Below are positions 1,534 through 26,159 of a stretch of 64,000 nucleotides of DNA, piece after piece; position 1 is the first letter of the stretch; the number at the start of each line of letters is the position of its first letter. The DNA is from Candidatus Pacearchaeota archaeon. GTDB taxonomy: Archaea > Nanobdellota > Nanobdellia > UBA10117 > JAFCGA01. The notes under the pieces were generated by a model that was not told where the DNA came from, made no database searches, and saw nothing but the letters and a program-made list of their open reading frames with translations. The stretch spans positions 97,766 through 161,765 of the forward strand of contig JAFCGA010000001.1 in the NCBI GenBank assembly GCA_017608345.1. The letters are read 5' to 3'. Both the position numbers and the translations under genes were made by a program.

Positions 1534-1626
1534 ATTCCTCTACGCACTACTTCGCTAAACAATTCTTTTTATACGAGTAGTTACAACTCTCATCACTTCG
1601 GAGGACTACATAAGCAAAGATTTACA

Positions 1627-2595: not shown

Positions 2596-2647
2596 GCTTT
2601 ACAGAAACTTTAAATGCTTTTCCAACGATTCTACTTCAGTGATATTT

Positions 2648-3022: not shown

Positions 3023-3030
3023 AATATTTT

Positions 3031-3162: not shown

Positions 3163-3200
3163 ACTGGACAAATAGATAACTAAGATATAAAAAGGTTCTT

Positions 3201-3255
3201 AACCAGAAATTAAAAATTTCTGGAGTAAAACTTACTTACGTAAGTTTTATAAATC
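3201..3255 (+). promoter_or_regulatory. copy 1 of a ~55-bp promoter/hairpin module (CCAGAAAT-N5-ATTTCTGG, AAAACTTAC-TTAC-GTAAGTTTT, TTTATAAATC) upstream of hicB
   Basis: It is a direct repeat of 3758-3812. The TATA-like TTTATAAA ends ~22 nt before the hicB ATG at 3276. Confidence 0.6.
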
Positions 3256-3275
3256 TCTAAAACGCTTAGAATAAT

Positions 3276-3545
3276 ATGGCAAAGGCAAGATTTTCTAAGA
3301 ACGGAATTACATTTAACGCTGATGTATATCCCGATGAGGACGGCTTTTTTGTAGCTCGTTGTGTCCAGCTAGATATAGCTAGCCAAGGAAAAACAGTAGA
3401 CGAAGCTATTGAAAACCTAAAAGAAGCTACTGAACTATATTTAGATGCTTATCCGGAAAAAGCTGCGTTAGGAAATCGTTTCTTTGTAAGCGCTACATTT
3501 GAGGTTCTCCAGAATGCCAAAATTACCCCTCCTGTCAGGGCATAA
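3276..3545 (+). CDS. hicB: HicB-family antitoxin (UPF0150-like)
   Basis: FNADVYPDEDGFFVARCVQLDIASQGKTVDEAIENLKEATELYLD fits the HicB N-terminal fold signature. It overlaps the downstream hicA. Confidence 0.7.
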   Translation: MAKARFSKNGITFNADVYPDEDGFFVARCVQLDIASQGKTVDEAIENLKEATELYLDAYPEKAALGNRFFVSATFEVLQNAKITPPVRA

Positions 3546-3747
3546 ACTAGTAAAACTGCTCGTTAACACTGCTGGATTCAAGATAATTAGACATAAGAAA
3601 GGTAGCCATACGATTCTTGAGAAGCGCGAGGAGGGTAAAGTAATAAGTACGGTTGTGCCCTTGCATCCCACTCTCGGACGCGGTATTCTACGAGAGATAA
3701 TTAAACAATGCAAGATGACTCGAGAAGAGTTCTTCGAACTAATTTAA
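3514..3747 (+). CDS. hicA: HicA-family mRNA interferase toxin
   Basis: MPKLPLLSGHKLVKLL..GFKIIRHKKGSHTILEK...VVPLHPTLGRGILREIIKQCKMTREEFFELI carries the YcfA/HicA hallmarks (GSH, VPxH, G..r.Ilkq). The ATG at 3514 overlaps hicB by 32 nt. Confidence 0.75.
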   Translation: MPKLPLLSGHKLVKLLVNTAGFKIIRHKKGSHTILEKREEGKVISTVVPLHPTLGRGILREIIKQCKMTREEFFELI

Positions 3748-3757
3748 TAACTTTTAT

Positions 3758-3812
3758 AACCAGAAATCAAAGATTTCCGGAATAAAATTCGCTGTCGCAA
3801 GTTTTATAAATC
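3758..3812 (+). promoter_or_regulatory. copy 2 of the ~55-bp promoter/hairpin module, upstream of the SRP RNA
   Basis: AACCAGAAATCAAAGATTTCCGGAATAAAATTCGCTGTCGCAAGTTTTATAAATC aligns to 3201-3255. The TATA ends ~20 nt before the GGGCTAGG RNA start. Confidence 0.6.
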
Positions 3813-3831
3813 AAAATTCTATTGTTTCTAT

Positions 3832-4080
3832 GGGCTAGGCTGGCCGGTGCAGGTGCGCGGCTGTTACCTGAAATCGTCTTTACAGGGGCCGAAAAGCTGG
3901 GGGCGGCATTGCTATTATTTGCTGTCCTGATTGTTAGCGTCGAAGCATCGCCTTCAGGGGTGTTATGTTCATATGAATCTGGTCAGACCTTGACGGGAGC
4001 AGCCATAGTGTGCTCATGGTGTGCTCTGGAGATACGGTGTGGAGCTGGCTTTTGGGGTTAGCAGTAAGTGATGGTTTTTT
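3832..4080 (+). ncRNA. signal recognition particle RNA (archaeal 7S/SRP RNA), ends approximate
   Basis: A GC-rich island in an AT-rich genome with its own TATA box at about -25 and a terminal T6 run. It contains UGGUCAGACCUUGACGGGAGCAGCCAUAG, which matches the universally conserved helix-8 core (compare E. coli 4.5S AGGUCAGGUCCGGAAGGAAGCAGCCAAGG). The 5' GGGCUAGGCUGGCC can pair with the 3' GCUGGCUUUUGGGGUUAGC. Confidence 0.65.
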
Positions 4081-4101
4081 CAACCTCAGTGACGCCCACT
4101 T

Positions 4102-4527
4102 TTAATTAAGTTGTCCCAACATTCTCAGAATTATAAACGCGAAGATAATAATAACCGCAATCTTAAGTAAGTCTATCGGATTGATATTTCCCTTTTTTGG
4201 CTTAAGATTATCTCTTAATAATCTCATATTATCCTTAAAGAATTCTTTTATTATATTTAACCTTTCCTTTATTGCTACAATATCCTTTTCTATAGAAATT
4301 AGACGGTTGTTATAGCTCAATTGGCGTTCAATTTCATCAATTTTCTTTAATTTCGAGATTATCCAATCAAAAGAAAGAATTATGAGAACAATGATTACTA
4401 TTGCAGCGATAGCTCCATAAAGCTGGTACTCTGTAATCACTTTGGAAGTATATATTAATAAACTAGTGACTAGGCTAATTATACCAAATAGGATAGTTAA
4501 TGCTTTAGAAGACCATTCTTGTTTCAT
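4102..4527 (-). CDS. hypothetical membrane protein with a coiled-coil middle (141 aa)
   Basis: The ORF has hydrophobic segments at both ends (ALTILFGIISLVTSLLIY, AIAAIVIIVLIILSF, IAVIIIFAFIILRML). Confidence 0.5.
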   Translation of the reverse strand: MKQEWSSKALTILFGIISLVTSLLIYTSKVITEYQLYGAIAAIVIIVLIILSFDWIISKLKKIDEIERQLSYNNRLISIEKDIVAIKERLNIIKEFFKDNMRLLRDNLKPKKGNINPIDLLKIAVIIIFAFIILRMLGQLN

Positions 4528-4682
4528 GTAGTTCAGCAGATACTCCTGTTCTTAAATGATTTTGTATCTTGTAGTCTAATCTATATTAATGCGCAATATA
4601 TATATAAATTATTGGTTAATTTAATAATAAAGGGTTAATAAACATAAGTCTTTTATGTGTTTAGTTTACTATATTAATTATT

Positions 4683-5591
4683 ATGAAAAATATCCTAGCT
4701 ATTAGTATTATTATAACACTCTTTGCGAGTATTCTTCTAGCTAGTGGCTGTGTCGAGCAAGATGTTACTTGTAACAAACCATACATTTTAGTTGGAAAAG
4801 ATTGTTGTTTGGATGCGAATGATAATTCTATTTGTGATACAGATGAGACGGTTAAGCAAGAAGAACCGAAAGCTCCAGAAGTAGCTGATACGCCTATCGA
4901 GCCTGAGCGAGTAGAAGAGCCAGTCATAACTGGCGAAGCGGTTAATGTGCCCGAAGAAGAACCAGAAGAGCAAGAGCGCGTGAACGTTATTTGTGGAGAC
5001 GATGACTGTGATGATAGTGAAATCGGAAGATGTTTCCCAGACTGTCCTGCAAATATTTATGGTGGAGATGACCCTTATGCTGATTACGAAGCTCCTTCTT
5101 GCGGTGACGGAGAGTGTAGCGGTTTTGAAGCAACTACTCAAACATGCCCAGAGGATTGTGATAGCACTCCCGATGTAGAAGAAGGGTGCCATATAGCGCA
5201 TAGCAGTTCTTCCCAGCCAGACTTTGAAGTCTGGTTTGAAGAGGATGGTGCTAGAGTAACAAGCTATACTGACAAAATAGCCGGAGTTGATTACACGAAT
5301 TTTGATTTGATGGTTGAGACGTTAACTGCATCAAGCTTAATTTGTGACGTAACTGAGTATTATAATGATGAAATAAATGAAGAATTTGAATTGCAAACTT
5401 TCGTTGATACATCTCTTGGAATAAACCCCATGAATATTATAATTGAACCTAAAGCTACGGAAGGAACATTACAAGTAAAATACCGATTAACTTGCTATAA
5501 TTTTGTGGAATATTCCTATAAAGATACTTGCGATACTATTGAATCTCGTACTAAGACGGCTACGATTCCATTATACTTTATTGAATCTTAG
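4683..5591 (+). CDS. secreted or lipobox-like Cys-rich acidic protein (302 aa)
   Basis: An N-terminal signal ends in LLASGC, followed by the CNKPYILVGKDCCLDANDNSICDTDE motif, an acidic linker and a further Cys-rich region. Confidence 0.6.
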   Translation: MKNILAISIIITLFASILLASGCVEQDVTCNKPYILVGKDCCLDANDNSICDTDETVKQEEPKAPEVADTPIEPERVEEPVITGEAVNVPEEEPEEQERVNVICGDDDCDDSEIGRCFPDCPANIYGGDDPYADYEAPSCGDGECSGFEATTQTCPEDCDSTPDVEEGCHIAHSSSSQPDFEVWFEEDGARVTSYTDKIAGVDYTNFDLMVETLTASSLICDVTEYYNDEINEEFELQTFVDTSLGINPMNIIIEPKATEGTLQVKYRLTCYNFVEYSYKDTCDTIESRTKTATIPLYFIES

Positions 5592-9215: not shown

Positions 9216-11963
9216 ATGACTGAAGACTTTAACTATGATGATATTTTTGCTCAAGTAGATCGAGAAAATGAGCAAGAGTCGGGACTTCGCGGTGAATGCG
9301 ATGATAATGGTTGTACTCCCTTATTTAATAAGCAAGGAAAGTACGTTGGATATGAGGATTCCGCGGGCAAGGTTCATTATGATAGCTTACATAAACAGCG
9401 AGGACGGCGAAACGTAGCATATGATTACGGTGCTAGAAAGCGGCTCGAAGAGAGAGCGCGCCGCCAGAAAATACGCGCGAGTCTCAAACCAGTAATAAAG
9501 AAAGTTAAATTAGCAGATAGGGATACAATTGAAGCAGAGACGATTCATCTATCTGCAAAAAATAGTAATTCGGTAATTGTTAATGATGCTGAGACTCTCG
9601 CCAAATTAGAAGAGGAATTTGAAGGTGTATACGCAGGATTTAATGGTTTCGGCGTGTTTGATATATCTGACGGTCGCCTAGATGAATTTGAAGAATTCGC
9701 AAAAGAACACAAACTAAAAGTATATCCTTTCCCATTAGCTACTTATTATCTAACTGAATCAAATTTTCGTAGCAAGCTAGCTGCACCAGCAGGTAATCAC
9801 AAGTATTGCATAATTGAAGAGCTGGACTTAGAAGATATGATCTTCTTTGATAAGGTGGTAAATAGAGAACTAATTGAAACTAATCTGAAGGGAGGAATAG
9901 ATTTACTAATCTCCACATGCAAATATATCGGATTCGACGATAGTACTGTCGCAGATTTAATTAACCAATTCAATCCCGAGATAGATAATACTCTCTTAAA
10001 CTACATCTTAGAAGAAGAAATTGGTGAATTCTTGGAAAATCGCCTCGATCTTCGAGCTAAATTAGAAACTGCAAGGAGAAAATGCTCAAACAGAGATGTA
10101 GCTAAATTAATCACTATAACGAATGACTCCGACCTTATTCAAGTTAAAGAAGAAATAATTGCGGGATTGCACACTAACGAGGAAATTGTGAATCATTACA
10201 TCAAACTGCAAACAAAAGGAGATAAACGTAAAATAAATTATCAGAAATCAGTGGATTTTTGGGATAACCTTGATCACAGAATAAGGAGTATGTGCAAAAC
10301 CGGTATAGTCCGCGGCAAAATAAAAGAGCTAGATCTAATCTCTAGTAGTAATAAATATCAATTAGATAATTTCCTAAGCAATAATCCTGAGATAAAACAA
10401 CTCTTCGAAGACAAAGCCATGGATTATTATGATTATAAAGCTCAGATTCTACTCAACTTAGATAAAGTAGATCTTGATATAACAAAGTCTTATCAAAAAG
10501 TTCAAAATGCCCAGAAAAGATTGAAGACTGCTCGAACTACCTTCGAAACTAAATTAAAACATAGCAACGAAAATTATGTTCCATTAAAACGGAGATTAAA
10601 TAGTTTAAAGTATTACTCAAAAGATGAAAACGCATCAGAAATCAAAGAGATAGAGCAACAAATAAAAAAGATTCAACTTACTGAACCAGCCTTATTTAAA
10701 AAACACGAAGATGCTAAATTTAAGATCCATCAATTGAAGCGGAGTTATGAGAACCTATTAGCAGATTCTAATCAATTACATGCCGCCCGGTGGGGCGAAA
10801 ACGAGAATACTTATCTTATTACTGCACTATTCGAAAATCGCATCTTGCTAACAGAAGAGCTAGATCAATCTTTCTTCTCGGAACTTGAATCCAAGCACTC
10901 TGCTTCAGAACTAATTAGAATACTTCCAGAACTAATTAGAGATTATAAGCCTCTAACGCTGGAAGACCTCGCCACAGATTCAGTAGACTCTGCCAAGAAA
11001 CAAATAAGTCAGATTTCCAATAAAGTTAAAGAACTATATGATAGAAAGGAGCTTATATTCAATAACATGCAGTGGAAGCGAGTAAAGCCAATGGTTTCAG
11101 CAGGATTAAGAACATTGCAAGGCAGATTAGATCGACTAATTTCTTTTGAAGATCGCAATAAAGATCGTTTTAGTGAAGCAGAAAATCTAAAAGGATATTA
11201 CTATTCTGGAGAGAGCAATGATAACTTAATCGAACATCATGATGAAATAAGCTTCCGAATAAAACAAATAGTAGCTGAGATTAAGCAACCAACGCCAACT
11301 AAAAAGGACGATGAAGATAAAAAGATTAGCATCGACAGTCGAGTAAGACTCGGAGTATTATCCAAGCTATCTTATTTAGATAAATTAATACAAGATCAGT
11401 CAAAACTATTCCATCAAGGAAGCAATCTCGTTAGGAATATAAGCAAATCCTTGCATAATCGTGATTACCTAGAGCTTCACTGGGCACAGGGTAACAATAC
11501 CTTCTACGTCAGTAAGGGAAATAAATATGCTGAATTAGAAGAACGCGGAGATGCCTGCCCAATGGGTTTAAGCAAGAACTGGTATACACCTAAGATAAGA
11601 TTCTTATCTAGTGGAATAGAGTTCTCCCAGCATTATTTCAATAACTTAGAAAATAAAATAATAACTGGGGAAGAAAAACCCGCTAAGATTGAATTCAAGG
11701 ATTATGATAATAGTTTTATCTTGCATTTAAAAGATAATCGTTCGGTTAGCCTGTCATTAAAGCATGCAGATGAATTACTAACACATATAGAAACCTACGC
11801 AATTGATGCGCTCCAGATAAGCTCCGCGAATAAGCAGAGTACAGGAGCTACTCCGACGATAGAGTATGATAGTGAGTTTATTAAACTAAGTGGTGAAAGT
11901 GATGTGGAATATAATTTATTTCACACTTACTCACGACTAAAAGAAGCTGTTGCTAATTGTTAA
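9216..11963 (+). CDS. large hypothetical protein (915 aa), Lys/Glu-rich with a probable coiled-coil
   Basis: A 2.7-kb uninterrupted ORF with no recognisable catalytic motif. Confidence 0.6.
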   Translation: MTEDFNYDDIFAQVDRENEQESGLRGECDDNGCTPLFNKQGKYVGYEDSAGKVHYDSLHKQRGRRNVAYDYGARKRLEERARRQKIRASLKPVIKKVKLADRDTIEAETIHLSAKNSNSVIVNDAETLAKLEEEFEGVYAGFNGFGVFDISDGRLDEFEEFAKEHKLKVYPFPLATYYLTESNFRSKLAAPAGNHKYCIIEELDLEDMIFFDKVVNRELIETNLKGGIDLLISTCKYIGFDDSTVADLINQFNPEIDNTLLNYILEEEIGEFLENRLDLRAKLETARRKCSNRDVAKLITITNDSDLIQVKEEIIAGLHTNEEIVNHYIKLQTKGDKRKINYQKSVDFWDNLDHRIRSMCKTGIVRGKIKELDLISSSNKYQLDNFLSNNPEIKQLFEDKAMDYYDYKAQILLNLDKVDLDITKSYQKVQNAQKRLKTARTTFETKLKHSNENYVPLKRRLNSLKYYSKDENASEIKEIEQQIKKIQLTEPALFKKHEDAKFKIHQLKRSYENLLADSNQLHAARWGENENTYLITALFENRILLTEELDQSFFSELESKHSASELIRILPELIRDYKPLTLEDLATDSVDSAKKQISQISNKVKELYDRKELIFNNMQWKRVKPMVSAGLRTLQGRLDRLISFEDRNKDRFSEAENLKGYYYSGESNDNLIEHHDEISFRIKQIVAEIKQPTPTKKDDEDKKISIDSRVRLGVLSKLSYLDKLIQDQSKLFHQGSNLVRNISKSLHNRDYLELHWAQGNNTFYVSKGNKYAELEERGDACPMGLSKNWYTPKIRFLSSGIEFSQHYFNNLENKIITGEEKPAKIEFKDYDNSFILHLKDNRSVSLSLKHADELLTHIETYAIDALQISSANKQSTGATPTIEYDSEFIKLSGESDVEYNLFHTYSRLKEAVANC

Positions 11964-13347: not shown

Positions 13348-16035
13348 ATGACTGATTGGCATTCTATTCCGCTAGATAGTTTATTCAAAGAGCTAAATAC
13401 TTCTAAGCATGGATTAACTCAGGAAACAGCGAGATCGAGGCTAGCAAAATATGGAGAAAACAAGCTCAAGCAGGCTAAAAAGATTTCTCCGATTACAATT
13501 TTTATAAATCAGTTCAAGAATTTCTTGGTTCTTTTATTAGTGCTAGCTATAGCGATATCTATTGCGATTGGGCATTTTATTGATGCTGCAGTCATAGGAG
13601 TAATAATTTTAGTAAATGCTATTCTGGGATTTATACAAGAATACAAAGCTGAGCGAGCTATGGAAGCGCTCAAGAAGCTCTCTGCGCCGAAAGCAAAGGT
13701 TACTCGAGATGGAGAGTTTCGTACGATTCCAGCTACACAACTAGTTCCGGGAGATATCATTCTACTCGAGCAAGGAGACAGAATCCCTGCAGATGCTAGG
13801 CTCATAGAAGCCATTAATCTCCGCATTGACGAAGCTTCACTAACCGGAGAGTCGATTCCAATAATGAAGGACATCGCAGTAATCAAAAAGGCTAAACTAG
13901 CTATTGGCGATAAAAAGAATTGCGTGTTTATGAACACAATCGTAACCTACGGTCGGGGAACGGCTATGGTTACGCAAACCGGTATGCAAAGCGAGGTTGG
14001 CCATATTGCTAAGCTCCTTCAGACAACTGAGACACAACCTACTCCGCTGCAAAACAAGCTAAAAGACGTTGCTAAGACGCTAGGTATAGCTATTCTCATA
14101 ATCTGCGGAGCTATGTTTGCAGTAGGACTTCTACGGGGAGTCGATATATTTGAGATGTTCATAACTGCGATAGCGCTAGCTGTAGCCGCTGTTCCCGAAG
14201 GCTTGCCCGCAGTTGTTACTATAACTCTAGCCATTGGGCTAAACCGTATGGCTAAATCAAAAGCGATAGTTCGGCGATTGCCAGTTGTTGAAACTCTTGG
14301 TGCCGCGACAGTTATCTGCTCAGATAAAACCGGAACACTGACTAAAAACGAGATGACTGTTAAGGAGATTTACACAAATAAGAAAACATATACTGTGCTT
14401 GGTTCAGGATATGAGCCAAAAGGAGAAATACTCGACGGCAAGAAAGAGGCAAAAATAGATAAGAATCTAGACATGCTACTCAAAGCTTCGATCTTGTGCA
14501 CAACAGCTAATCTTTATCAAGATAAAGGCTGGAAAATCTCCGGTGATCCGACTGAAGGCGCGCTAGTTGTAGCAGCTGCCAAAGCTAATCTAATAAAAAA
14601 CAAATTAGTGAAAGAGTATAAATCCCTTGCTGAACTGCCATTTGATTCTAAGCGTAAGCGAATGTCGATAGTGTATGCGACGCCGACAAACAAAAAAGTA
14701 GCTTATGTTAAAGGCGCTCCGGAGATAATCTTAGGCAAGTGTGTAAGTATCTTTGAAGATGGAAAAGTTAGGAAACTCAGCGAGCTAGACAAAAAGCGAA
14801 TTTTAACTAAGAATCAGAATATGGCTTCCCGTGCGCTGCGGATTTTAGCTATTGCATATCGAGTAATGCCTAATGTAAAGAAATACTCCATTGAAAATAC
14901 TGAAAAAGATCTTGTTTTTGTTGGTCTTGAGGGAATGATTGACCCGCCGCGGATGGAAGCTAAGAAAGCTATCTCGCTCTGTTCCAAAGCAGGAATTAAG
15001 GTGATAATGATCACTGGAGACCATGAGCTAACCGCGCGGGCGATTGGAAAAGAACTTGGCATTGTTGGAAAAGCCGTAGATGGAGCAGAACTAGACCGAT
15101 TAAAAGCTAAAGGTTTGCTGGGAATTGTCGAAAAAACAGCTATTTTTGCGCGAGTTTCTCCAGAACATAAAGTTATGATCGTCGAAGCGCTGAAGAACAA
15201 AGGTCATATTGTTGCTATGACTGGTGATGGAGTAAATGACGCTCCTGCGCTGAAGAAAGCGGACATAGGAGTAGCCATGGGTATCAAAGGTACTGATGTT
15301 GCTAAAGAAGCTTCAGACATGATCTTAGAAGATGACAATTTTGCAACGATTGTATCGGCTGTCCGCGAAGGGCGAGGAATTTTTGATGATATTCGCAAGT
15401 TTATACTTTATTTATTATCCTGCAATGTTGGCGAGATTATGGCAATCTTTGGGGCTTCCCTTATCGGCTTACCGATTCCGTTACTAGCTGTTCAAATATT
15501 ATGGATGAATTTGCTGACCGATGGTTTGCCAGCTCTTGCTCTCGGTGTTGAGCCGCCAGGAGATCATATCATGGAAAGACCGCCTCGCGATCCGAAAGAA
15601 CACACGATTAACAAGCAAATGTGGACAAATATAGGTCTTGTTGGGACGGTTATGTGTATTGGTGTGTTATCTCTATTCTTCCTAGCAGACCCATCTAAGA
15701 ACTTGCCTTACGCTAGAACAATGGCTTTTTCCTCTATAGTTATGTTCCAATTGTTTAATGTATTTAATACTCGCTCAGATGGCTCGGTATTTAAAACAAA
15801 CTTCTTTAGCAATAAATACTTGTTATTAGCAGTCATTAGCTCGCTTTTGTTGCAGTTCTTTGTAGTCTATGTGCCATTCATGCAGCCGCTATTTGGAACC
15901 GTTGGATTAGCGGCCATGGATTGGGTGAAGATTGTGGGGGTTAGCGCTTCGATTATATTAGTTGTTGAGGTTTGGAAACTCGTCTCTAAATTAAGAAATC
16001 CACAATCCGTGAACACTGCAATACATTCTAGCTGA
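13348..16035 (+). CDS. P-type cation-transporting ATPase (type II, Ca2+/SERCA-PMCA-like)
   Basis: It carries the DKTGTLT phosphorylation site, TGES, MITGDH and MTGDGVNDAPALKKADIGVAMG, with multiple TM segments over 895 aa. Confidence 0.9.
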   Translation: MTDWHSIPLDSLFKELNTSKHGLTQETARSRLAKYGENKLKQAKKISPITIFINQFKNFLVLLLVLAIAISIAIGHFIDAAVIGVIILVNAILGFIQEYKAERAMEALKKLSAPKAKVTRDGEFRTIPATQLVPGDIILLEQGDRIPADARLIEAINLRIDEASLTGESIPIMKDIAVIKKAKLAIGDKKNCVFMNTIVTYGRGTAMVTQTGMQSEVGHIAKLLQTTETQPTPLQNKLKDVAKTLGIAILIICGAMFAVGLLRGVDIFEMFITAIALAVAAVPEGLPAVVTITLAIGLNRMAKSKAIVRRLPVVETLGAATVICSDKTGTLTKNEMTVKEIYTNKKTYTVLGSGYEPKGEILDGKKEAKIDKNLDMLLKASILCTTANLYQDKGWKISGDPTEGALVVAAAKANLIKNKLVKEYKSLAELPFDSKRKRMSIVYATPTNKKVAYVKGAPEIILGKCVSIFEDGKVRKLSELDKKRILTKNQNMASRALRILAIAYRVMPNVKKYSIENTEKDLVFVGLEGMIDPPRMEAKKAISLCSKAGIKVIMITGDHELTARAIGKELGIVGKAVDGAELDRLKAKGLLGIVEKTAIFARVSPEHKVMIVEALKNKGHIVAMTGDGVNDAPALKKADIGVAMGIKGTDVAKEASDMILEDDNFATIVSAVREGRGIFDDIRKFILYLLSCNVGEIMAIFGASLIGLPIPLLAVQILWMNLLTDGLPALALGVEPPGDHIMERPPRDPKEHTINKQMWTNIGLVGTVMCIGVLSLFFLADPSKNLPYARTMAFSSIVMFQLFNVFNTRSDGSVFKTNFFSNKYLLLAVISSLLLQFFVVYVPFMQPLFGTVGLAAMDWVKIVGVSASIILVVEVWKLVSKLRNPQSVNTAIHSS

Positions 16036-16368
16036 CTTTATCTCGCTCTTGCTTGCTTGGAAGATAGATTCGGGTTTATTAGTTGGTGTTAAAAACTTCC
16101 TACAGTTTCCTTTCTCAGTTTCTATCTCAATCCATTCAATATAGTGGTCTTCTTGCATCGGATGCTCGACAGCGCCGACCTTAACTTTTGTTCCATCTTT
16201 AGTTTCTTCTAGCACTGGCGCATGTTTGGCAGCATACTCTCCAGTAGATTGCTCTTCGATTAGCTCCATAGGCGCTCCGCAGCAGACTAGCTCGCCCGAA
16301 CTAGTGTGGAGAACTTCAATTATGTTGCCACAGATATGGCATTTATAAATTTGTGATTGCTTTGTCAT
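15991..16368 (-). CDS. dfx: desulfoferrodoxin (2Fe superoxide reductase)
   Basis: An N-terminal desulforedoxin CHICGN...CCG is followed by the SOR core KHAPVLEE...HPMQEDHYIEWIEI...YCSVHGLW. Confidence 0.85.
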   Translation of the reverse strand: MTKQSQIYKCHICGNIIEVLHTSSGELVCCGAPMELIEEQSTGEYAAKHAPVLEETKDGTKVKVGAVEHPMQEDHYIEWIEIETEKGNCRKFLTPTNKPESIFQASKSEIKSARMYCSVHGLWIS

Positions 16369-16418: not shown

Positions 16419-16796
16419 ATGGGACATACGAGAGGAATAAGCTTCACTGTATCTTTCCCCACATTAGCTAGACTCACAGAGATACCGCAAGAACTCTCTC
16501 AAAGACATGGAGCTATTGATCTAATGAAAGTCATTGGTGAAGAAACACAGGAAATATATGCGTTAGAGAATATGATATTAAATGCTATTTATAGTCCAGT
16601 AGAGCAAGTAAGGACTGAAATCCATAATGCTATTGATCTCTGTCTTTTGGGCACAGTTGAAGATGTAATTATCCGAGATAGACGAATATTTCTAAGTCTA
16701 CAAGCAGAAGGTGCACCTAAGAAGCTAGCTTACTTATGTGATATTCCCAACGAATATATGGATAAAACACAGTATTCTTATGCATCGCAAGTATAG
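16419..16796 (+). CDS. hypothetical protein (125 aa)
   Basis: ORF only; its 3' end overlaps the convergent radical SAM gene by 19 nt. Confidence 0.35.
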   Translation: MGHTRGISFTVSFPTLARLTEIPQELSQRHGAIDLMKVIGEETQEIYALENMILNAIYSPVEQVRTEIHNAIDLCLLGTVEDVIIRDRRIFLSLQAEGAPKKLAYLCDIPNEYMDKTQYSYASQV

Positions 16797-17875
16797 CAGT
16801 GGTTCTTTAGCTTACACGTCGATACAGTTCCGGACATTATTCCCTCTAGATTTTCGATGAACCACTTAAATTCTCGGTCGTGAAAGTTAGTTAGCTCAGC
16901 TTTTACTTGCGAGTAAGGCTTAGTGAAAAGATTAGAAATAATTGAGTGGTTGCAATTTACTGCTTCGAATGAAGCGCACAAATTTAGATCTCCGTTCGGC
17001 TCGATAATAATTCCCGGCCATTTTACTAAATCCGGACAGACGTATTCACTCATGGCTGCTTCGAACTGCTGAGTATAAGCATCAAGTATTCCTTGATTAG
17101 ACAAATATTGCTCAAATCTTCCGAAGGGATAAACTCGCGTGTCAATTGGCGGAATTATTATTTCGATAGCTTTTGTTCCTAGACTGGTTGAATACTCCGT
17201 ACGGTCGTTGATAACATCAAGGTGAACTCCTTCGAATATGGTTCTCTGATTGCCCCAGAAGGTGTTCTCTACCTCTTCTGCTCGCGTAGGGTTCTGCTGA
17301 GAGTAAATGTCTCCTAACAAGGAGATTAATATTTTATCTGAGAACTCCATTGAATTTCTTATCGACTGATTGAATGCCTTTGCTAGCTTTCCAGTATCTA
17401 ACTTATCGTAGTAATGGTGGTACGTTAGCATAATTTCTATGCTGACTTCGCGTTCGATTGAGAATTGCGCTAGCTTATCGATTATCGATGTGTGCTTATT
17501 CTGAAGCCCGAAGGCTAATGTGAATTCATTGATTCCATTATCATACAGAAACTCAAGAATATCAACTATGTCGTGTCCTTCAGAATTATAGATTAAAGGA
17601 TTTCCTCGCCGCCCGAAGTCAACAACGGAGAATATTTTCAGAAACTCGGGGTCGATTGAAGTAAATGAGCTATAGCTCATAACTTCTCCAGCCATATTTG
17701 AATCTGCAACACAATGTAAGCAGGAATGCTCGCACTGATTGCTCGGGGAAATAATCAGTCGTGGGTTTTCAGCGAACAAATCAGATATTTCGGTTACTTC
17801 AGTTGTTAAGTCTGCTTGCGCTCTGAGAACTGTCTGATAGATGGTTTGTAGTTCTGCAGGCGATAAAGAACTCAT
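16778..17875 (-). CDS. radical SAM enzyme with a SPASM/twitch-like C-terminal cysteine domain (putative peptide maturase)
   Basis: It has CEHSCLHC (CX3CX2C) and a GGE-like GRRGNPL. The C-terminus has CPDLVKWPGIIIEPNGDLNLC (C-x14-G-x4-C), VNCNH and STCKLKNHCYTC (C-x5-C-x2-C). Confidence 0.8.
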   Translation of the reverse strand: MSSLSPAELQTIYQTVLRAQADLTTEVTEISDLFAENPRLIISPSNQCEHSCLHCVADSNMAGEVMSYSSFTSIDPEFLKIFSVVDFGRRGNPLIYNSEGHDIVDILEFLYDNGINEFTLAFGLQNKHTSIIDKLAQFSIEREVSIEIMLTYHHYYDKLDTGKLAKAFNQSIRNSMEFSDKILISLLGDIYSQQNPTRAEEVENTFWGNQRTIFEGVHLDVINDRTEYSTSLGTKAIEIIIPPIDTRVYPFGRFEQYLSNQGILDAYTQQFEAAMSEYVCPDLVKWPGIIIEPNGDLNLCASFEAVNCNHSIISNLFTKPYSQVKAELTNFHDREFKWFIENLEGIMSGTVSTCKLKNHCYTCDA

Positions 17876-17876
17876 T

Positions 17877-18242
17877 TTATAAATATCTACAAGGATTTAT
17901 CCCGCCACGACTCAAGCTCATTCTGTACATCCTACAGGGATTTATTCCTCCGCGCGGCGTCAAGTCTCGCATTAACACCTCTAATGATCGGTCCAATTCC
18001 AGCTCTATCCGAGTATCCATTAGGTTTAGCCCCTTCTTTGATATAGTGTTATCTTCTTCTAACACGCCCCTCTGATGCAAGTAATTGACAATTGTATCAT
18101 ATTGTTCCTCTGGGAAAGACTCTTTTGGGGGTAATGCTTCTTTTTGTTTCAGCAAATGGTAGAAATTACCGAATGTGCGTGAATCTATTTCGAGGCGCTT
18201 TAACTCATCCTCAATCGTTAACCTACGCTCTAGTCTCGGCAT
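17877..18242 (-). CDS. precursor-like protein B (121 aa) ending in 2x RGGINPCR
   Basis: The C-terminus is ...TPRGGINPCRMYRMSLSRGGINPCRYL*. The stop lies 1 nt from the rSAM ATG. It is a paralog of the upstream ORF. Confidence 0.55.
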   Translation of the reverse strand: MPRLERRLTIEDELKRLEIDSRTFGNFYHLLKQKEALPPKESFPEEQYDTIVNYLHQRGVLEEDNTISKKGLNLMDTRIELELDRSLEVLMRDLTPRGGINPCRMYRMSLSRGGINPCRYL

Positions 18243-18661
18243 GGTGCAAAACCCCCCGTACTTCCTAAGTATCTATCTTGGCAAGGCGCGAATCCGCCAG
18301 AGTTCCCGGAGAGTACTCTGCTTCTAGCTCTAAACCTATTTTGTTGTTCCATATTTATTTCTCGCTGTCTTTCCAATACCTCCTCCCAAAGCTTATCCTC
18401 TAAGTCATAACGAGCCTTAAATAATTTAGCTGCATCGGGAATTAAGTTTCCATTATCCGCAATTACGTTACTGCTTCTCAGGTAAGCTACAATTGCGTTG
18501 TATTCTCTCACAGACGTTAATTTCGAGATTATGGATTCACACGGAGGGAGCTTTTCTTTAGCTGCTAATTCAGTATAAAAAATCTCGAAGTGATCTACAT
18601 TTATTTCTAGCGCTGTTAGTTTATATAAAATCGTTTTTCTTGCTTCTTCGGGCAATATCAT
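18230..18661 (-). CDS. precursor-like protein A (143 aa) ending in 2x GGFAPC(Q/R)D
   Basis: The C-terminus is ...SGNSGGFAPCQDRYLGSTGGFAPCRD*. It overlaps the next ORF by 13 nt. The N-terminal ~100 aa are paralogous to ORF 17877-18242. Confidence 0.55.
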   Translation of the reverse strand: MILPEEARKTILYKLTALEINVDHFEIFYTELAAKEKLPPCESIISKLTSVREYNAIVAYLRSSNVIADNGNLIPDAAKLFKARYDLEDKLWEEVLERQREINMEQQNRFRARSRVLSGNSGGFAPCQDRYLGSTGGFAPCRD

Positions 18662-18687: not shown

Positions 18688-19536
18688 TTACATATCCGCC
18701 ATTACTGGCTTGTCTGCTATGAACTTACAAAGTAGATTAAGCTTTTTAAAGTATTTGCACATCTCCATGCATGCAAATTTCTCTGTTGAATAATGTGTTC
18801 CGCCGAGAATACTAATTCCTTCTTGCTTTGCAAAGTCATGAGCTTTCTGCGAGTACTTATTCTTTATTGATATCCCAGTTATATGTAAATTTACTCCTTC
18901 CTTCGCGACTTCCTTAAGCAAATCTATATCATTTCCGCCGCCAGGAATAACTGAAACCAAGCCGTCTTTTATTTCGCTAGCTCCATAATTATATAATTCA
19001 GTTCTGTGTCCGATCGCTTCCTCGAATTTCTTCTTTAATTCTTCAATAGTTTTGCACTTTGTTTCCCCGATCACTCCAGATAACGAACCAAAATAGTGTG
19101 CAAACGCCTTCTTAGGTTTAATTCCAAGCGCTTTTGCTAGACTTACTCCGGTTGAATATGGACCATAATTATCGAGCGGAACATGAAGGTTATATATTGA
19201 AATTCTGTTTTCTCTGAATTTTTCGAGCAGCTTTCTATCCATTTGATAAAAAGCTGGATCTTTCCTTACATCCCAGATAGATGGATGATGAACAAAAAGC
19301 ATAGCGTCCTGTGTACCTTTATCTAAAATCTCCTTCATTACTTTCTTCGAAGGAAAGACAGCTGTATAAACTCGATTTATCTCTTCTGCGAAGTCGCAGA
19401 CTAAACCCATTGATCGCTTCTTAAAATTCTCGCTAAGAAAATCTGCGACAGAATCCATATATTTTGCCCACTCATCACTTAGTCCCGGATTTATGAAATC
19501 CTTTTCTAGCTGCGCGTAGAGTTTAGTTGCTTTCAT
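18688..19536 (-). CDS. NIF3-family dinuclear metal centre protein (GTP cyclohydrolase I type 2 homolog)
   Basis: MKATKLYAQLEKDF..., VHHPSIW, LHVPLDN and GGTHYSTEK are typical NIF3/YbgI blocks. Confidence 0.8.
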   Translation of the reverse strand: MKATKLYAQLEKDFINPGLSDEWAKYMDSVADFLSENFKKRSMGLVCDFAEEINRVYTAVFPSKKVMKEILDKGTQDAMLFVHHPSIWDVRKDPAFYQMDRKLLEKFRENRISIYNLHVPLDNYGPYSTGVSLAKALGIKPKKAFAHYFGSLSGVIGETKCKTIEELKKKFEEAIGHRTELYNYGASEIKDGLVSVIPGGGNDIDLLKEVAKEGVNLHITGISIKNKYSQKAHDFAKQEGISILGGTHYSTEKFACMEMCKYFKKLNLLCKFIADKPVMADM

Positions 19537-19910
19537 GTACTGATGCTACCCTTTGCGTCCCTAATAAGAACCTCTAAGCGATTAGGATCATCAATGTTGC
19601 TTCCCCTTTCCATTAAGAGTACATCGAGTCCAAAATAGCTGTATTCTCTTATTGCTCTTGAGGCAGTGTCAGAGAGATACGAAAGCAGAGTATTTGTGCA
19701 CCTGAATATCTCTCCGTCATGAGGCGAATATTTCGGGATAAAAGTATCTCGATAAAAATCAATAAATATCTGACCGCTATGGATTAGTCTCTCCTCGCGT
19801 TTCTTTATTCTTCCCAGATCCGAAGACATTGGCTCGTGCCTTGGATGCAGTTCTAAATAACGCTTACTCAAATCTTCTAAATCAGATACTAATGCAGCTA
19901 ATTGATTCAC
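19533..19910 (-). CDS. hypothetical helical protein, tandem paralog B (126 aa from the GTG at 19910)
   Basis: The GTG start sits in the same GTGAATCAATTAGC context as paralog A. (M)[20 protein letters not shown]... aligns with paralog A along its whole length. Confidence 0.5.
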   Translation of the reverse strand: MNQLAALVSDLEDLSKRYLELHPRHEPMSSDLGRIKKREERLIHSGQIFIDFYRDTFIPKYSPHDGEIFRCTNTLLSYLSDTASRAIREYSYFGLDVLLMERGSNIDDPNRLEVLIRDAKGSIST

Positions 19911-20287
19911 TGTACCGTCACCCCCGCTTTTGCTCTTTCGATAAACTTTTCTAGAACAGTTGGCTCGCCAATAAAAGAACTTTTCGTACACATCAGAACA
20001 CCTAATGCAAAATAGTTAGAATTACTTGCTGCTTCTGCGGCCTTTTGAGAAAGACCTAAAAGTAAATCCTTCGCCTCGCGGAAAATTGGTCCCTTCTCGG
20101 GAGCGTATCTCTGTTTGAAAATACTTTGATAAAAATCAATGACTAACTCTCCACTTTCTATCAGCGGATCCTTAATTAGATGTAGCTGTCCGATCGAGGG
20201 AGCGGCATCCATTGCAGAATTCAGAAGACCCAAATAAGTCTTATTAAGTTCCTCCAAATCCTCGATAAGTTCAGCTAATTGATTCAC
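19907..20287 (-). CDS. hypothetical helical protein, tandem paralog A (126 aa)
   Basis: The GTG start overlaps the cyclophilin stop (GTGA). The sequence is [21 protein letters not shown]...[27 protein letters not shown]. Confidence 0.5.
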
Positions 20288-21634: not shown

Positions 21635-24376
21635 ATGCTAACACCCCCGCTAGAAGAAATACTTTCGAACTCGGCAGTTAAACTAAGAGAACAATTACTG
21701 ATACCAGAGATAGAAGTATTTGATGAGATATATACGAAAGTTCTATCTGAATTTAGAGCAGATATTAAGCTTGCTCAAGCCGAGAATAAGCTAGCTAAAT
21801 CAAGTGCTTTGCAAATAAGACAGCTTAAGCTTAGTGATCTATCTGAGAGTAAGGAAGAAATCTTAGAAACAATCGTCGGAGAAGAAGTAAATTACACTTC
21901 GTTCGAATATTCAGATCCGCCCGAGGGAGAGAAACTCGTATCAGTATTCATGCCAGTAAAGAATGGACGCGGGAAAATACTAAGATCTCTCTTCGGACTC
22001 AAAAAAGAACTTGACGCGCTAGACAAAAACGGATTCGAATACATAATTAATATTTGCATCAATAACACGCAAGATGGAACGCTAGAACGCGTATTAAAGT
22101 TCAAGCAGTTGTTTCCTCAAGCACCGCTCAATATTTATGAACTAGATAAGGAAAGTTTGCGAGCAACTGGAAAGATATATTCCCTGAATCTTTTGTATAC
22201 GCTACTAAAAAATAATATCAGTTCTGGAGAAAATGTCTACATTCATGTTGCAGACGATGATATTGGTTATCCCAAACCAACAAGCGGGATACTGTCAAAC
22301 ATTCAGGAGTTGCAGAATAATGACTCGCTAAAAGCCATTTGTGGCACATATACTACTAGCAAATCCACTGAAGGATTTCATTTTCTAAATTCAATTAGGA
22401 AAGATCGCGGAATTCTCGCTAAGGTTGGTCCATTGCCACAAGTTTATGGTGGCGCATTAACTATTAATTTTCAAGACTTCCCTGCAGAAGGTCTACCGCC
22501 AGATACTTCTTTTGATTGCTTTATTACGCTATACTATCTCAAGGATAAAATAACTAATATTGGCGCTTTAATTGAAAATCCCGAGGACTTACCAATCAGA
22601 ACAAATCCTGAATTCCTAATCGAGCATCCCGAAGAGCCGGCTTTCGCAAAATTTGTATGGCGCTTTTTGAGAGATGTAGACTGGAGAAAAAAGAGTGCAG
22701 AACAGCTTGGCGGCGATAAACTCGAAACAGAATTTCTAAAATTAAGACGGACACTATACGACAAAATAACGCAGACAATAGAAGAATTACCAAATACAGA
22801 TCCGCGGAAAATAGGTCAGAAGTGGTTAAGATTAATTAGAGATGAAGTATATTCACAGCGAGATTCTGGAGAGTTAACTCGAGAGCTTGTTGTTCCGCTA
22901 CTCCAAGACGGAAGTTCTGCAGATGAGCAAGCATTCTGCCATAGTTTAATAAAAGATATTCCGCGGTTTAATAGCACGTTAGAGCTGCTTGCACAAAATA
23001 GCTACTTCGATACTAATTCCCTCACTGAACTGTCTAAGCCCGAGTTAACCGAGAAAGTCAAATTCAAACACATTGAACGAGCAATTAATAAAAATAAAGA
23101 TCATCTCAGGGAGAATAATTGGTTAGGAGATCCGACAATTTATTTATTAGACTCGATTATCGAAAGAACATTATCACAACGGGAGCTATTATGTAAAGAA
23201 ACTACCTTAAGAGCAATATTCGAAAGAGCAGATATTAATTTAGGAAAAGACATAAATATCGAAAGACATGAAGCGCTCGGAAATTGCAATTTCTCTTTTT
23301 TCATAGAATCAGATGGACAAAAATATTTCTTAAGATATCATGATCCGTTAGGATTCAGATGGTTTCAGCGGCATACTCCGCGTAAAACAACTTACTTCAG
23401 CGTTTTGTGCGAGGAGATTTTCGGAGAATTGCTCGGAAAGGAAGCTGTCATCGGGACAATCTTTCCTAGCCTTGAAACAGCTGCAGATAACTACTTCGGA
23501 CTCGAGGAAACAAATCCAATTGAGAAGATCGCCCAGAGAGTACTGATTCAGAAAGACATTCGTAAGGACTATACTGAACTTATAAATTACTGTGAACTTG
23601 GTCTTGATTTACATCAAGCTACAGAGATATATGCTAGCATTCTTGCAGAGTATCATGGAAAATCCTTGGGAATAACAAAATATTTCCGAAACTCAGAGCA
23701 TAGTGACAAGAAATTTATGAAACTATTAAACCTAGCGGGAGAAGATATAAGATTCTCAAATGCAGCTAGCTATCAAACTTGGTTATGTGGTCCGAACTGG
23801 GTCACTCGAATATTTAATTCCTTAGAAGATGAATTCCATCGAGATAATCAATTTTATCATTGCGTTAAATCAATGCTCAACGAAGCAGACGTGGACATAT
23901 CTAACAAATTCTCTGAGGTTTGCACCCGATCTGTTAAGAGATTTGAAGAAGGCTCACTCGGACATCTTGATTTTAAACTAAATAATCTGTTTGTTAATCA
24001 AAACAATACTCTGGATCGAAAAATATACGATTTTGACCATATAACTTTCTTAGATCCAATGTATGAAGCAGGACATAGTATATATTCGCTAGTTAAACAT
24101 GCACTGCTAGCAGAAAATGCAAATGCAAATGAGCTCCTCGAGCTAACTGAGACTTTTAACAACACATATTATTCTCAATTTCAGCATCAGCTAGAGATCG
24201 GAAACTTTGCGGGTAAAAAGCAAATAATTACTTCAGCGAATCTACTGGCAGACTCAAACTTCTTTGCTGGAATAACTCTCTTATCCGTATTTGCTTCAGA
24301 GTATAAGAATTATAATCTATCTCCAGGTCAGCTGGAATCAATCAAGCAAGTATGCTATGCGTTACTAAAACAATGA
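21635..24376 (+). CDS. fusion protein: N-terminal GT2-like glycosyltransferase plus C-terminal APH/choline-kinase-like phosphotransferase
   Basis: VSVFMPVKNGRG...ICINNTQDGTLE...HVADDDI resembles GT-A/GT2. HLDFKLNNLFV...IYDFDHITFLDPMYEAG matches the HxDxxxxN...DFD kinase catalytic and activation motifs of the APH/ChoK family. Confidence 0.55.
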   Translation: MLTPPLEEILSNSAVKLREQLLIPEIEVFDEIYTKVLSEFRADIKLAQAENKLAKSSALQIRQLKLSDLSESKEEILETIVGEEVNYTSFEYSDPPEGEKLVSVFMPVKNGRGKILRSLFGLKKELDALDKNGFEYIINICINNTQDGTLERVLKFKQLFPQAPLNIYELDKESLRATGKIYSLNLLYTLLKNNISSGENVYIHVADDDIGYPKPTSGILSNIQELQNNDSLKAICGTYTTSKSTEGFHFLNSIRKDRGILAKVGPLPQVYGGALTINFQDFPAEGLPPDTSFDCFITLYYLKDKITNIGALIENPEDLPIRTNPEFLIEHPEEPAFAKFVWRFLRDVDWRKKSAEQLGGDKLETEFLKLRRTLYDKITQTIEELPNTDPRKIGQKWLRLIRDEVYSQRDSGELTRELVVPLLQDGSSADEQAFCHSLIKDIPRFNSTLELLAQNSYFDTNSLTELSKPELTEKVKFKHIERAINKNKDHLRENNWLGDPTIYLLDSIIERTLSQRELLCKETTLRAIFERADINLGKDINIERHEALGNCNFSFFIESDGQKYFLRYHDPLGFRWFQRHTPRKTTYFSVLCEEIFGELLGKEAVIGTIFPSLETAADNYFGLEETNPIEKIAQRVLIQKDIRKDYTELINYCELGLDLHQATEIYASILAEYHGKSLGITKYFRNSEHSDKKFMKLLNLAGEDIRFSNAASYQTWLCGPNWVTRIFNSLEDEFHRDNQFYHCVKSMLNEADVDISNKFSEVCTRSVKRFEEGSLGHLDFKLNNLFVNQNNTLDRKIYDFDHITFLDPMYEAGHSIYSLVKHALLAENANANELLELTETFNNTYYSQFQHQLEIGNFAGKKQIITSANLLADSNFFAGITLLSVFASEYKNYNLSPGQLESIKQVCYALLKQ

Positions 24377-25316: not shown

Positions 25317-26159
25317 ATGCAAATCATCAAGAAAAATGGCTATTACTATCTAAAGCATTCTCTTCGGAGAAGCGGAAAAGTCATAACAAAAGAGAGATAT
25401 CTCGGAAAAGAGATTCCAGAGAATATTGAAGCGCTAAAACAAGAACTTAAGAAAGAAAGCCAGGAAGCCGTATATCAAAAGCTAGAAAAAATACGAGCTA
25501 GCTTTCAAAAGGAATGGAAGCGACTGCCCGAGAGCGCTAAGCAGCGGGAAAAGGAAGAGCTAGCGATAGCTTTTACTTATAATACAAACGCTATCGAAGG
25601 TTCGGCTATAACTCTTGCGGAAACTCGGGAGATAATTGTTGATAAAACTGCGCCAAATAAATCTCTAGCAGATATTCATGAGACAGAGGCGCACTCTAAA
25701 GTGTTCTTAGAATTGCTAGACAAACACGAAAAGCTATCTAAGGCCATTCTATTGAGATGGCACAAGGATATCTTCGGAGAAACTAAGTCTGATATCTCAG
25801 GCAGATATCGCGACTTTCGAGTGAGGGTTGGAACCTACATTGCTCCAGACTGGCAAGATGTTGAGAAACTAATGCTCAGTCTTATTAAGTTTTTGAAGAA
25901 TACAGAAATGAATCTAGTAGAACTGTCTGCACGAGCACACTATCAGTTTGAGAAGATTCATCCATTTGGAGATGGGAACGGCAGGATTGGTCGGCTGCTA
26001 ATGAACCACATCTTATGGTTTGCTGGCTACCCTATGCTAATTATTGAGTACAAGAAGAGAAAGTCTTATTACCGCGCCTTACAGCGAGAAGAAGACGGTT
26101 TTGTGAATTACTTCTTAAGGAGATATTTGACTGTGCATAAGCGACGGCTCATTAACTAA
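25317..26159 (+). CDS. Fic-domain protein (AMPylase family)
   Basis: Fic motif HPFGDGNGRIGRLLMNH. Confidence 0.85.
   Translation: MQIIKKNGYYYLKHSLRRSGKVITKERYLGKEIPENIEALKQELKKESQEAVYQKLEKIRASFQKEWKRLPESAKQREKEELAIAFTYNTNAIEGSAITLAETREIIVDKTAPNKSLADIHETEAHSKVFLELLDKHEKLSKAILLRWHKDIFGETKSDISGRYRDFRVRVGTYIAPDWQDVEKLMLSLIKFLKNTEMNLVELSARAHYQFEKIHPFGDGNGRIGRLLMNHILWFAGYPMLIIEYKKRKSYYRALQREEDGFVNYFLRRYLTVHKRRLIN

Follow-up and report, generated by a model that had tools for sequence, protein, structure and literature searches.

A divergent radical SAM enzyme and a putative GG-Φ-x-P-C substrate tag encoded side by side in DPANN archaea

Within a 64,000-nucleotide (nt) stretch of a Candidatus Pacearchaeota archaeon genome (contig JAFCGA010000001.1, positions 97,766 to 161,765; this whole stretch is referred to here as the window), we identified a 365-amino-acid (aa) protein that, judged by its motifs and predicted structure, is a highly divergent radical S-adenosylmethionine (SAM) enzyme. 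Its gene lies directly downstream of two paralogous genes for small proteins, each with two copies of a GG-Φ-x-P-C motif near its C terminus (Φ, hydrophobic residue). From comparative sequence analysis, we lean towards the view that these genes form a three-gene enzyme–substrate cassette in which the substrate gene has been duplicated, and that the enzyme is a dedicated maturase that would modify the motif as a portable tag.

Pairing of the enzyme gene with a portable motif

The open reading frame (ORF) of the putative enzyme (16778..17875, minus strand) is supported by 58 homologues and by an AlphaFold2 (AF2) model. Its ATG (17873–17875) is 1 nt past the stop codon of a 121-aa ORF (17877..18242, minus strand), homologues of which lie upstream of the enzyme in related loci; the 121-aa ORF is in turn overlapped by 13 nt by a 143-aa ORF of the same architecture (18230..18661, minus strand). 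These two putative substrate proteins share 36–38% identity. The coordinates, strand and spacing of the three ORFs, and the paralogy of the smaller two, are as described in the original prediction, which was made from the sequence of the window. Translation of the minus strand places two GGINPC copies in the 121-aa protein (residues 98–103, 17934..17951; residues 113–118, 17889..17906) and two GGFAPC copies in the 143-aa protein (residues 122–127, 18281..18298; residues 136–141, 18239..18256), the codons of the last overlapping the start of the 121-aa ORF. Such a density is far beyond chance: the pattern GG..PC occurs four times among the 31,166 residues that the six-frame ORFs of the window encode, all of them in these two proteins, and about 3e-4 occurrences per 121-aa protein are expected from amino-acid composition.

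Pattern-plus-tblastn scans, for which the enzyme motif TYHHY (described below) served successfully as the search pattern, gave 34 related loci, 7 from GTDB species representatives and 27 from metagenomes. In 32 of the 33 assessable loci, the enzyme gene adjoins an ORF of its own strand that has one to three GG-x-x-[P/S/T/L]-C units. This ORF is upstream in 31 of them, usually 2–10 nt away or overlapping, and downstream in one (L002); another locus (L020) has two tandem motif-bearing paralogues, as in the window. The original prediction had raised the prospect that orthologues of the small proteins would lack the Cys motifs, and ORFs with the motif accompany the enzyme in these 32 loci and also in the divergent relatives considered below. 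Within ±6 kb of the pair, the 34 loci show no further recurrent gene family. The neighbouring cyclophilin, NIF3 and two unknown paralogues, which share the minus-strand gene string with the cassette, and a nearby desulfoferrodoxin have zero homologues within that distance in any of the loci; a proposed link between the cyclophilin, as a prolyl isomerase, and the Pro of the motif is accordingly unsupported.

Because word-index searches with the small protein itself returned one protein from a single sequence and four from a profile, the family was recovered from enzyme-flanking DNA instead. Near-duplicates from related metagenomes are frequent among the 34 loci, and about 26 distinct small proteins underlie the statistics given here. 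Their 60 units have the consensus [S/N]-[S/T]-G-G-[I/L/V/M/F]-[A/N/M/L]-P-C-R, with one to three units per protein and 12–17 residues from Cys to Cys. Within this core set, motif position 3 is hydrophobic in 60/60 units and the Cys is present in 60/60. The Pro before the Cys, taken in the original prediction to be invariant, can be replaced by Ser, Thr or Leu, and at two independent loci, ORFs that are homologous to the small protein or equivalent to it in position have Asp where the Cys itself would stand: L005 (5563–5943) has GGWDPD and DGFDPV, and L052 (47–373) has a terminal GGLAPD. The enzyme that accompanies the L005 protein (P0034) is intact. It was considered as a pointer to residues that contact the Cys and proved uninformative, as P287S is its sole change at a near-invariant position.

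Copies of the unit within one protein resemble each other more than copies in different proteins do, agreeing on average at 1.39 of the two variable positions compared with 0.51 of 2 between proteins. Gene conversion was rejected as the source of this likeness, since the codons differ at more than half of the identical residues (94/178 identical positions between repeat copies). The agreement is therefore maintained by selection at the protein level, and such agreement would be expected if a single co-evolving enzyme pocket has to accommodate every copy.

The small proteins' N-terminal portion, about 90 aa, had been proposed to act as a leader or recognition region. In an AF2 model of the 121-aa protein, built from a shallow alignment of five sequences, it is instead a confidently folded domain (residues 10–94, predicted local distance difference test (pLDDT) score about 90) made up of three helices together with a short ‘wing’, which is a beta-hairpin, and one long helix; on the model it is winged-helix-like, and elsewhere it is swapped for unrelated carriers or a short peptide. 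Both motifs lie in the predicted disordered tail that follows it (residues 95–121, pLDDT below 50), where they would be accessible to the enzyme, and this predicted placement supports a role as substrate. Foldseek gave weak MarR-type winged-helix matches for the domain (E 0.37 to 1), and a sub-threshold match to HTH_67 was the sole Pfam match for the protein. The order of helices and wing is that of a canonical winged helix-turn-helix and not that of the recognition element (RRE) in pathways for ribosomally synthesized, post-translationally modified peptides (RiPPs). With Foldseek matches no better than E 0.37, assignment as a PqqD-type RRE or confidently as a DNA-binding domain was not adopted.

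More distant relatives of the enzyme adjoin proteins in which the same unit is borne on other scaffolds. Three N-terminal SNGGI(M/I)PC(R/H) copies occur in a 240-aa protein in L037 (enzyme P0076, E 5e-45), two N-terminal copies in a 205-aa protein in L045 (enzyme P0068, E 4.5e-78), three TGG(V/I)xPCY copies in a 71-aa peptide in L046 (enzyme P0066, E 9.5e-87), two C-terminal SGGLTSC copies in a 172-aa protein in L050 (enzyme P0065, E 3e-100) and one C-terminal copy in a 228-aa protein in L004. We found no known domains in these alternative carrier proteins. What is co-inherited with the enzyme is the motif and not the carrier, a pattern that, as far as sequence comparison can tell, is the signature of a substrate tag.

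Three further observations concern these divergent relatives. P0076 (L037, 3001–4269) has the cluster-motif spacing C-x9-C-x2-C (CDKFANPEKRCSHC) in place of CX3CX2C and, despite this unusual spacing, adjoins a protein with three GGI(M/I)PC units. At two loci from a more remote clade of the enzyme (E about 1e-32 to 1e-34), the ORFs upstream tentatively contain apparently inverted C-G-Φ-Φ-G-G units: CGLIGG and CGFVGG in L048 (2375–2854) and CGLVGG in L043 (2568–3029). A relative in L035 (P0071, E 4e-65; 1451–5264, and also in L036) is encoded between TGT and QueA-like (Queuosine_synth) genes with no motif ORF nearby, and members of the wider family may use another substrate, possibly one related to tRNA modification.

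These same features bear on a different assignment, in which the small proteins are accessory partners of the enzyme, for instance ones whose Cys tails bind Fe, an Fe–S cluster or some other metal so as to supply electrons or clusters, or are winged-helix regulators of the operon, the enzyme having an unrelated substrate that is encoded at an unlinked site. The winged-helix-like domain with its weak MarR-type and HTH_67 matches would suit such a role. Ligands of metals or clusters typically show replacement of Cys by Asp, some radical SAM-type enzymes have small electron donors that bear Cys, such as Dph3/Kti11, and the relative between TGT and QueA-like genes does without a motif ORF. Against this, the motif is conserved whereas its carrier is not (at least five unrelated scaffolds and a 71-aa peptide), one to three copies are inconsistent with the fixed stoichiometry of a metal site, and the motifs lie in a predicted disordered tail. 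We consider an accessory or regulatory role quite unlikely, and less likely than a role as substrate.

A divergent enzyme with one putative auxiliary cluster

Placement of the 365-aa protein in the radical SAM superfamily follows from its motifs, its predicted structure, the matches of that structure to solved folds and the distant relatives that match Radical_SAM. The sequence CEHSCLHC (17711..17734, minus strand) supplies C48-x3-C52-x2-C55, which presumably bind the radical SAM [4Fe-4S] cluster. These three Cys are invariant in 57/57 full-length homologues (35–59% identity), the set on which our Cys census is based. In an alignment of 25 sequences (A1), H54 is also invariant, and the signature of the enzyme is thus CxxxCxHC. 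A GGE-like SAM-binding motif, GRRGNP (residues 88–93; 17597..17614, minus strand), lies within the family pattern DFGRxG(N/D)P, in which D86, F87, G88, R89, G91 and P93 are invariant in A1; G88-R-R-G91-N-P93-L resembles GGEPL, as a match at the level of the motif only. Both the CEHSCLHC triad and the GGE-like motif, which the original prediction had picked out, were verified by translation and are conserved in the homologues. A third motif, TYHHY (residues 151–155; 17411..17425, minus strand), is specific to the family and invariant in A1, and sits at the end of the core strand E145–152 in the model.

The AF2 model of the enzyme, built from 25 homologues (pLDDT 85.5, predicted template modelling score 0.86), shows a core of six beta/alpha units in alternation, after which come a beta-hairpin and a long helix. 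In Foldseek searches of the PDB, the best 15 matches were all radical SAM enzymes, the first 11 with probability 1.00; EpeE came first, followed by DesII, viperin, MiaB and MoaA. The EpeE match runs over the full length (E 9e-7 to 4e-6, template modelling (TM) score 0.46–0.52, 13–14% identity), which, for a comparison with a predicted structure, suits the fold class and falls short for orthology.

An exhaustive profile search of 1.84 billion representative proteins found 85 relatives at E≤1e-3, and among 53 aligned family members and distant relatives the Pfam models Radical_SAM, Fer4_12 and SPASM were matched by 25, 8 and 2, respectively (best PF04055 E value 4.8e-18). The profile check suggested in the original prediction has therefore divided: the 365-aa protein itself misses Radical_SAM and SPASM, and 25 of the 53 aligned relatives match Radical_SAM. 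Faint matches of the window protein were to two radical SAM maturase models at its N terminus (E about 0.02) and to DUF3641/ArsS at its C terminus. Each of the 58 homologues is unnamed or ‘hypothetical’, and the family does not cluster with any housekeeping or named family, contrary to one of the outcomes that the original prediction had listed as refuting. Labels are mostly those of Woesearchaeota (‘Candidatus Woesearchaeota archaeon’), together with a few metagenome-assembled genomes labelled as methanogens or as ‘uncultured archaeon’. We also considered a role in anti-phage defence or a viral origin and set both aside, with zero PADLOC matches and no relative on IMG/VR contigs. None of the Pfam, NCBIfam or PADLOC models describes the enzyme, the small protein or the motif, and literature searches (on radical SAM enzymes or RiPPs of Woesearchaeota and DPANN, and on the motif) turned up no description of any of the three in the papers that could be searched; the original prediction, too, had not recognized the GG(I/F)(N/A)PC(R/Q) repeat as a described RiPP class.

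The C-terminal region (residues 280–360; 16796..17038, minus strand) is twitch-like, with C280-x14-G295-x4-C300 in a beta-hairpin, then C308, a helix, C354 and C360. In the model the hairpin is formed by E286–291/E296–298 and the helix spans residues 321–341. C280-x14-G295-x4-C300 is invariant and fits the CX9-15GX4C element that is common to SPASM and twitch domains. In the census, C280 and C300 are present in 57/57 homologues and C354 in 56/57, the lone homologue without it being a partial sequence; C308 (46/57) and C360 (45/57) are facultative, with at least one of them present in 55/57. The SPASM domain is reportedly defined by a pattern of seven Cys that includes CX2CX5CX3C, a definition said to go back to Haft and Basu in 2011 and Grell and colleagues in 2015. 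At most five C-terminal Cys are conserved among the 57 homologues of the window enzyme, and CX2CX5CX3C is absent from its C terminus. A twitch domain is a truncated C-terminal extension with 3–4 Cys, which suffice for one Fe–S cluster (PMC10114670, PMC13012085). Because there are three invariant or near-invariant Cys and two facultative ones, the Cys count points to one auxiliary cluster and not two, and the C terminus fits a twitch-like domain with a single putative auxiliary cluster.

The original prediction had proposed a SPASM/twitch domain. The twitch-like part of that proposal stands; a full SPASM domain is ruled out by the Cys census together with the missing PF13186 match, as there are too few conserved Cys. 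Similarly, of the C-terminal Cys that it listed, C-x14-G-x4-C is a family feature, and C-x5-C-x2-C is peculiar to the window protein, in which C363 is unconserved across the 57 homologues. Some relatives are long-form enzymes with an N-terminal extension of ~65–100 aa, and their substrates have no winged-helix-like domain. A domain swap, in which that extension would correspond to the winged-helix-like domain, was rejected on an hhalign probability of 0.5%.

Candidate modifications of the motif

We hypothesize that C48, C52 and C55 would hold the SAM-cleaving [4Fe-4S] cluster and that C280, C300 and C354, with C308 or C360, would hold one auxiliary Fe–S cluster. As substrates the enzyme would use the [S/T]-G-G-Φ-x-P-C-[R] units that stand in tandem in the disordered tail of each small protein; the winged-helix-like N-terminal domain would be one of several interchangeable carriers of the tag. 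Reductive cleavage of SAM would yield a 5'-deoxyadenosyl radical that could take H from a backbone Cα within the unit, at either Gly or at the hydrophobic residue, and the Cα radical could then be captured by the thiolate of the motif Cys to close a small intramotif thioether ring. The auxiliary cluster would bind the thiolate or accept an electron.

The thioether outcome, taken by itself, is a putative one that we regard as possible and put forward tentatively. It is favoured here because Cys, Gly-Gly and Φ are the constant elements of the unit; because their spacing is kept even in the apparently inverted unit; because the facultative fourth ligand may leave a site on the auxiliary cluster open for a substrate thiolate; and because streptosactin offers a precedent for small rings from Cys to Gly Cα. 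Streptosactin has small, unnested thioether rings from Cys to the Cα of Gly or Ser that are made by a radical SAM enzyme (PMC8172795), and an open auxiliary-cluster site has been proposed for sactisynthases, the clusters of SuiB and PqqE being fully ligated (PMC8326336).

The main rival to a thioether is epimerization of the kind carried out by EpeE (YydG), in which H would be abstracted from the Cα of the Φ residue that follows Gly-Gly and returned on the opposite face to give a D-amino acid, with the Cys or Asp of the motif acting as an anchor or as a relay of H or a proton. Over the whole length of the enzyme, the closest structural match is EpeE. This epimerase carries just one auxiliary cluster, within an extended twitch domain, and its targets are Val and Ile (PMC13012085); the hydrophobic residue is kept in all 60 core-set units, and replacement of Cys by Asp is easier to accommodate if sulfur enters no bond. 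The match is limited, however, to a TM score of about 0.5 and 13–14% identity, and assignment of C280, C300 and C354 with C308 or C360 to the auxiliary cluster leaves no spare conserved Cys like C223 of EpeE. Epimerization of Φ would also leave unexplained why the Cys is retained in 60/60 units of the core set and why Gly-Gly is nearly invariant. We judge this chemistry unlikely.

Another alternative shares the enzyme–substrate step with the reading that we favour and differs in the fate of the product. The carriers would be long leaders of a classical RiPP or of a peptide-derived cofactor, from which units of 6–8 residues would be excised by unlinked housekeeping proteases to give a diffusible peptide or a redox cofactor like PQQ or mycofactocin. 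Multiple identical core units per precursor, interchangeable carriers, and the conserved S/T before and R after the units as possible processing sites would all be in keeping with this, and the 71-aa ORF of L046, a ~25-aa N-terminal stretch followed by three units, looks like a multi-core precursor. Yet protease, exporter, immunity and tailoring genes are not conserved within ±6 kb in the 34 loci, the core-clade carriers have a confidently predicted fold and a conserved sequence, which is not what a leader that is to be discarded usually has, and inspection of the small proteins listed showed no hydrophobic N terminus of the signal-peptide type. Release of the product in this way therefore seems doubtful to us. 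The missing conserved protease and exporter, together with the conserved folded carrier, would favour a product that is intracellular and protein-borne, as judged from gene content and sequence. Of the peptide-modification system in the original prediction, the pairing of the enzyme with an adjacent Cys motif is upheld; a released RiPP natural product is not established, as no protease or transporter is conserved.

Several observations weigh against a dedicated maturase that acts on the motif. The Cys→Asp variants argue that the Cys sulfur is not universally required, and the Cys position of the motif may, from these sequences, be a ligand or an anchor and not just a sulfur donor. In four of the most distant enzyme relatives, including the one in L035, a motif ORF is absent within 3 kb. 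The 32 of 33 loci represent fewer independent lineages than their number implies, given the near-duplicates among metagenomes. Across the 34 loci, no protease and no transporter or exporter is conserved within ±6 kb of the pair, and the same is true of any immunity or further tailoring gene. An N-terminal RRE is not seen in the AF2 model of the enzyme, which has a single helix (residues 6–23) before the barrel. The likeness of that model to EpeE is moderate, at the TM score and identity given above.

Three further points against it concern recognition of the enzyme as such. The 365-aa protein matches neither Radical_SAM (PF04055) nor SPASM (PF13186) in Pfam at E≤1, it reaches none of the curated NCBIfam models, and the profile of its family found zero PDB chains by sequence; profile searches of the PDB linked neither the enzyme nor the small protein meaningfully to a solved structure. 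The same failures are what could be said for a degenerate, non-catalytic radical-SAM-like protein, whose adjacency to motif ORFs would carry no catalytic meaning. That is very improbable, because the cluster Cys, the GGE-like motif and the auxiliary Cys are invariant in the 57 homologues at 35–59% identity, which points to strong purifying selection, and because the predicted fold is that of a radical SAM enzyme.

The principle of a radical SAM maturase encoded next to a substrate with a Cys motif is already known, and the archaeal pair would work like a twitch-type RiPP maturase and its precursor, such as SkfB/SkfA, EpeE/EpeX or GggB/GggA. New are the lineage of the enzyme, the motif and its portability, as well as the occurrence in DPANN archaea; the chemistry could prove to be new too. 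SkfB with SkfA and GggB with GggA likewise pair an auxiliary-cluster radical SAM enzyme with an adjacent Cys-bearing substrate, and SkfB too has a single-cluster twitch domain (PMC8172795, PMC8326336). We detected no sequence relationship to the sactipeptide and ranthipeptide enzymes, and the archaeal enzyme has no N-terminal RRE. Sactipeptide leaders are 8–29 aa long (PMC8326336), whereas the archaeal substrates are 117–146 aa with a folded domain; their Cys is C-terminal to Gly-Gly, no protease or transporter is conserved beside them, and their hosts are archaea. EpeE resembles the archaeal enzyme in that its radical SAM cluster is accompanied by a single auxiliary [4Fe-4S] cluster, held in an extended twitch (‘T-SPASM’) domain, and in that it acts on hydrophobic peptide residues (PMC13012085). 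Epipeptides occur in Bacillota only, where they are encoded, along with a protease and an ABC transporter, in an epeXEPAB operon (PMC13012085, PMC12871923). In contrast, the archaeal pair has no adjacent protease or ABC transporter in the 34 loci, no counterpart of Cys223 was identified and the substrate motif is unrelated.

Two other known systems invite comparison. In the PQQ and mycofactocin pathways, a winged-helix protein takes part in substrate presentation, and the motif of the anaerobic sulfatase-maturating enzymes (anSMEs) is C/S-x-P-x-R. The PQQ (PqqE/PqqA/PqqD) and mycofactocin (MftC/MftA/MftB) systems are like the archaeal one in that an auxiliary-cluster radical SAM enzyme modifies C-terminal residues of a ribosomal peptide for intracellular use (PMC8326336). 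They differ in that their enzymes are SPASM proteins and their winged-helix RRE is separate or fused to the enzyme, not fused to the substrate as the winged-helix-like domain is at the archaeal locus, which also has no further pathway genes. The anSMEs resemble the archaeal enzyme as radical SAM proteins that modify a Cys in a short Pro/Arg motif of a protein, with no protease or exporter involved (PMC8172795). They have a full SPASM domain with two auxiliary clusters, unlike the archaeal enzyme, and their C-x-P-x-R differs from P-C-R preceded by GG-Φ-x; no sequence similarity between the enzymes was found, and there is no sulfatase at the archaeal locus.

No other source of new peptide chemistry is as productive as the radical SAM maturases, and those that have been characterized are nearly all bacterial and were found through the Radical_SAM and SPASM models of Pfam and TIGRFAM. 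The present family escapes these models and will therefore probably go unnoticed in standard mining pipelines. Its members are mainly confined to DPANN archaea (labelled Woesearchaeota), which have small genomes and few accessory pathways. The putative substrate of the family is unusually well defined by comparison, as a unit of 6–7 residues that moves between unrelated carriers, which makes the system directly testable. We speculate, as a possibility short of probable, that this divergent lineage may install a crosslink or residue conversion that is new to RiPPs and that stays on its carrier to act intracellularly in genome-reduced DPANN archaea, examples being a redox or metal-binding cofactor carried by the protein, or a switch on a DNA-binding protein of the winged-helix type. 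New chemistry would add a RiPP or post-translational modification class and a compact enzyme–tag pair of possible use in protein engineering; a modified winged-helix regulator or cofactor carrier would be an unrecognized piece of DPANN physiology.

Other genes in the window

The window has a G+C content of 39% and is archaeal by its gene content, as it encodes eIF2-gamma and the small subunit of the archaeal/eukaryotic primase. Many of its large ORFs have no Pfam match, including two of about 915 aa (9216–11963 and 21635–24376) with zero matches. Neither a tRNA gene nor an Rfam family at the gathering threshold was found in the whole 64 kb.

Near the cassette, two paralogous minus-strand ORFs of 152 and 126 aa (19533–19991 and 19907–20287) overlap by 85 nt as called, and the downstream one probably starts later than called. 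Neither gave a match in Pfam, NCBIfam or PADLOC, and in other genomes they are not conserved beside the cassette. On the other side, a 125-aa plus-strand ORF (16419–16796) is convergent with the enzyme gene, sharing 19 nt with its 3' end; it matches no family, lacks a homologue in all of the 34 loci and may not be a real gene. Beyond it lies the desulfoferrodoxin gene (15991–16368, minus strand; TIGR00320, E 1.4e-46), which suggests an anaerobic or oxygen-sensitive lifestyle. It converges on a P-type ATPase-like ORF of 895 aa (13348–16035, plus strand), whose end it overlaps by 45 nt.

Two genes that are unlinked to the cassette encode a Fic/DOC-domain protein (25317–26159, plus strand) and a protein of 286 aa that has DUF7343 and MarR winged-helix domains at its C terminus (33151–34011, minus strand). 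A 322-aa plus-strand ORF (1627–2595), preceded by a 246-aa ORF (793–1533, plus strand), has only the AAA-lid domain of MCM, which may be split or interrupted in the window. A 745-aa beta-helix/NosD-like protein (47126–49363, plus strand) is followed by one of 2167 aa with lamin-tail and CHB_HEX_C domains (49547–56050, plus strand), and these two are probably giant surface proteins.

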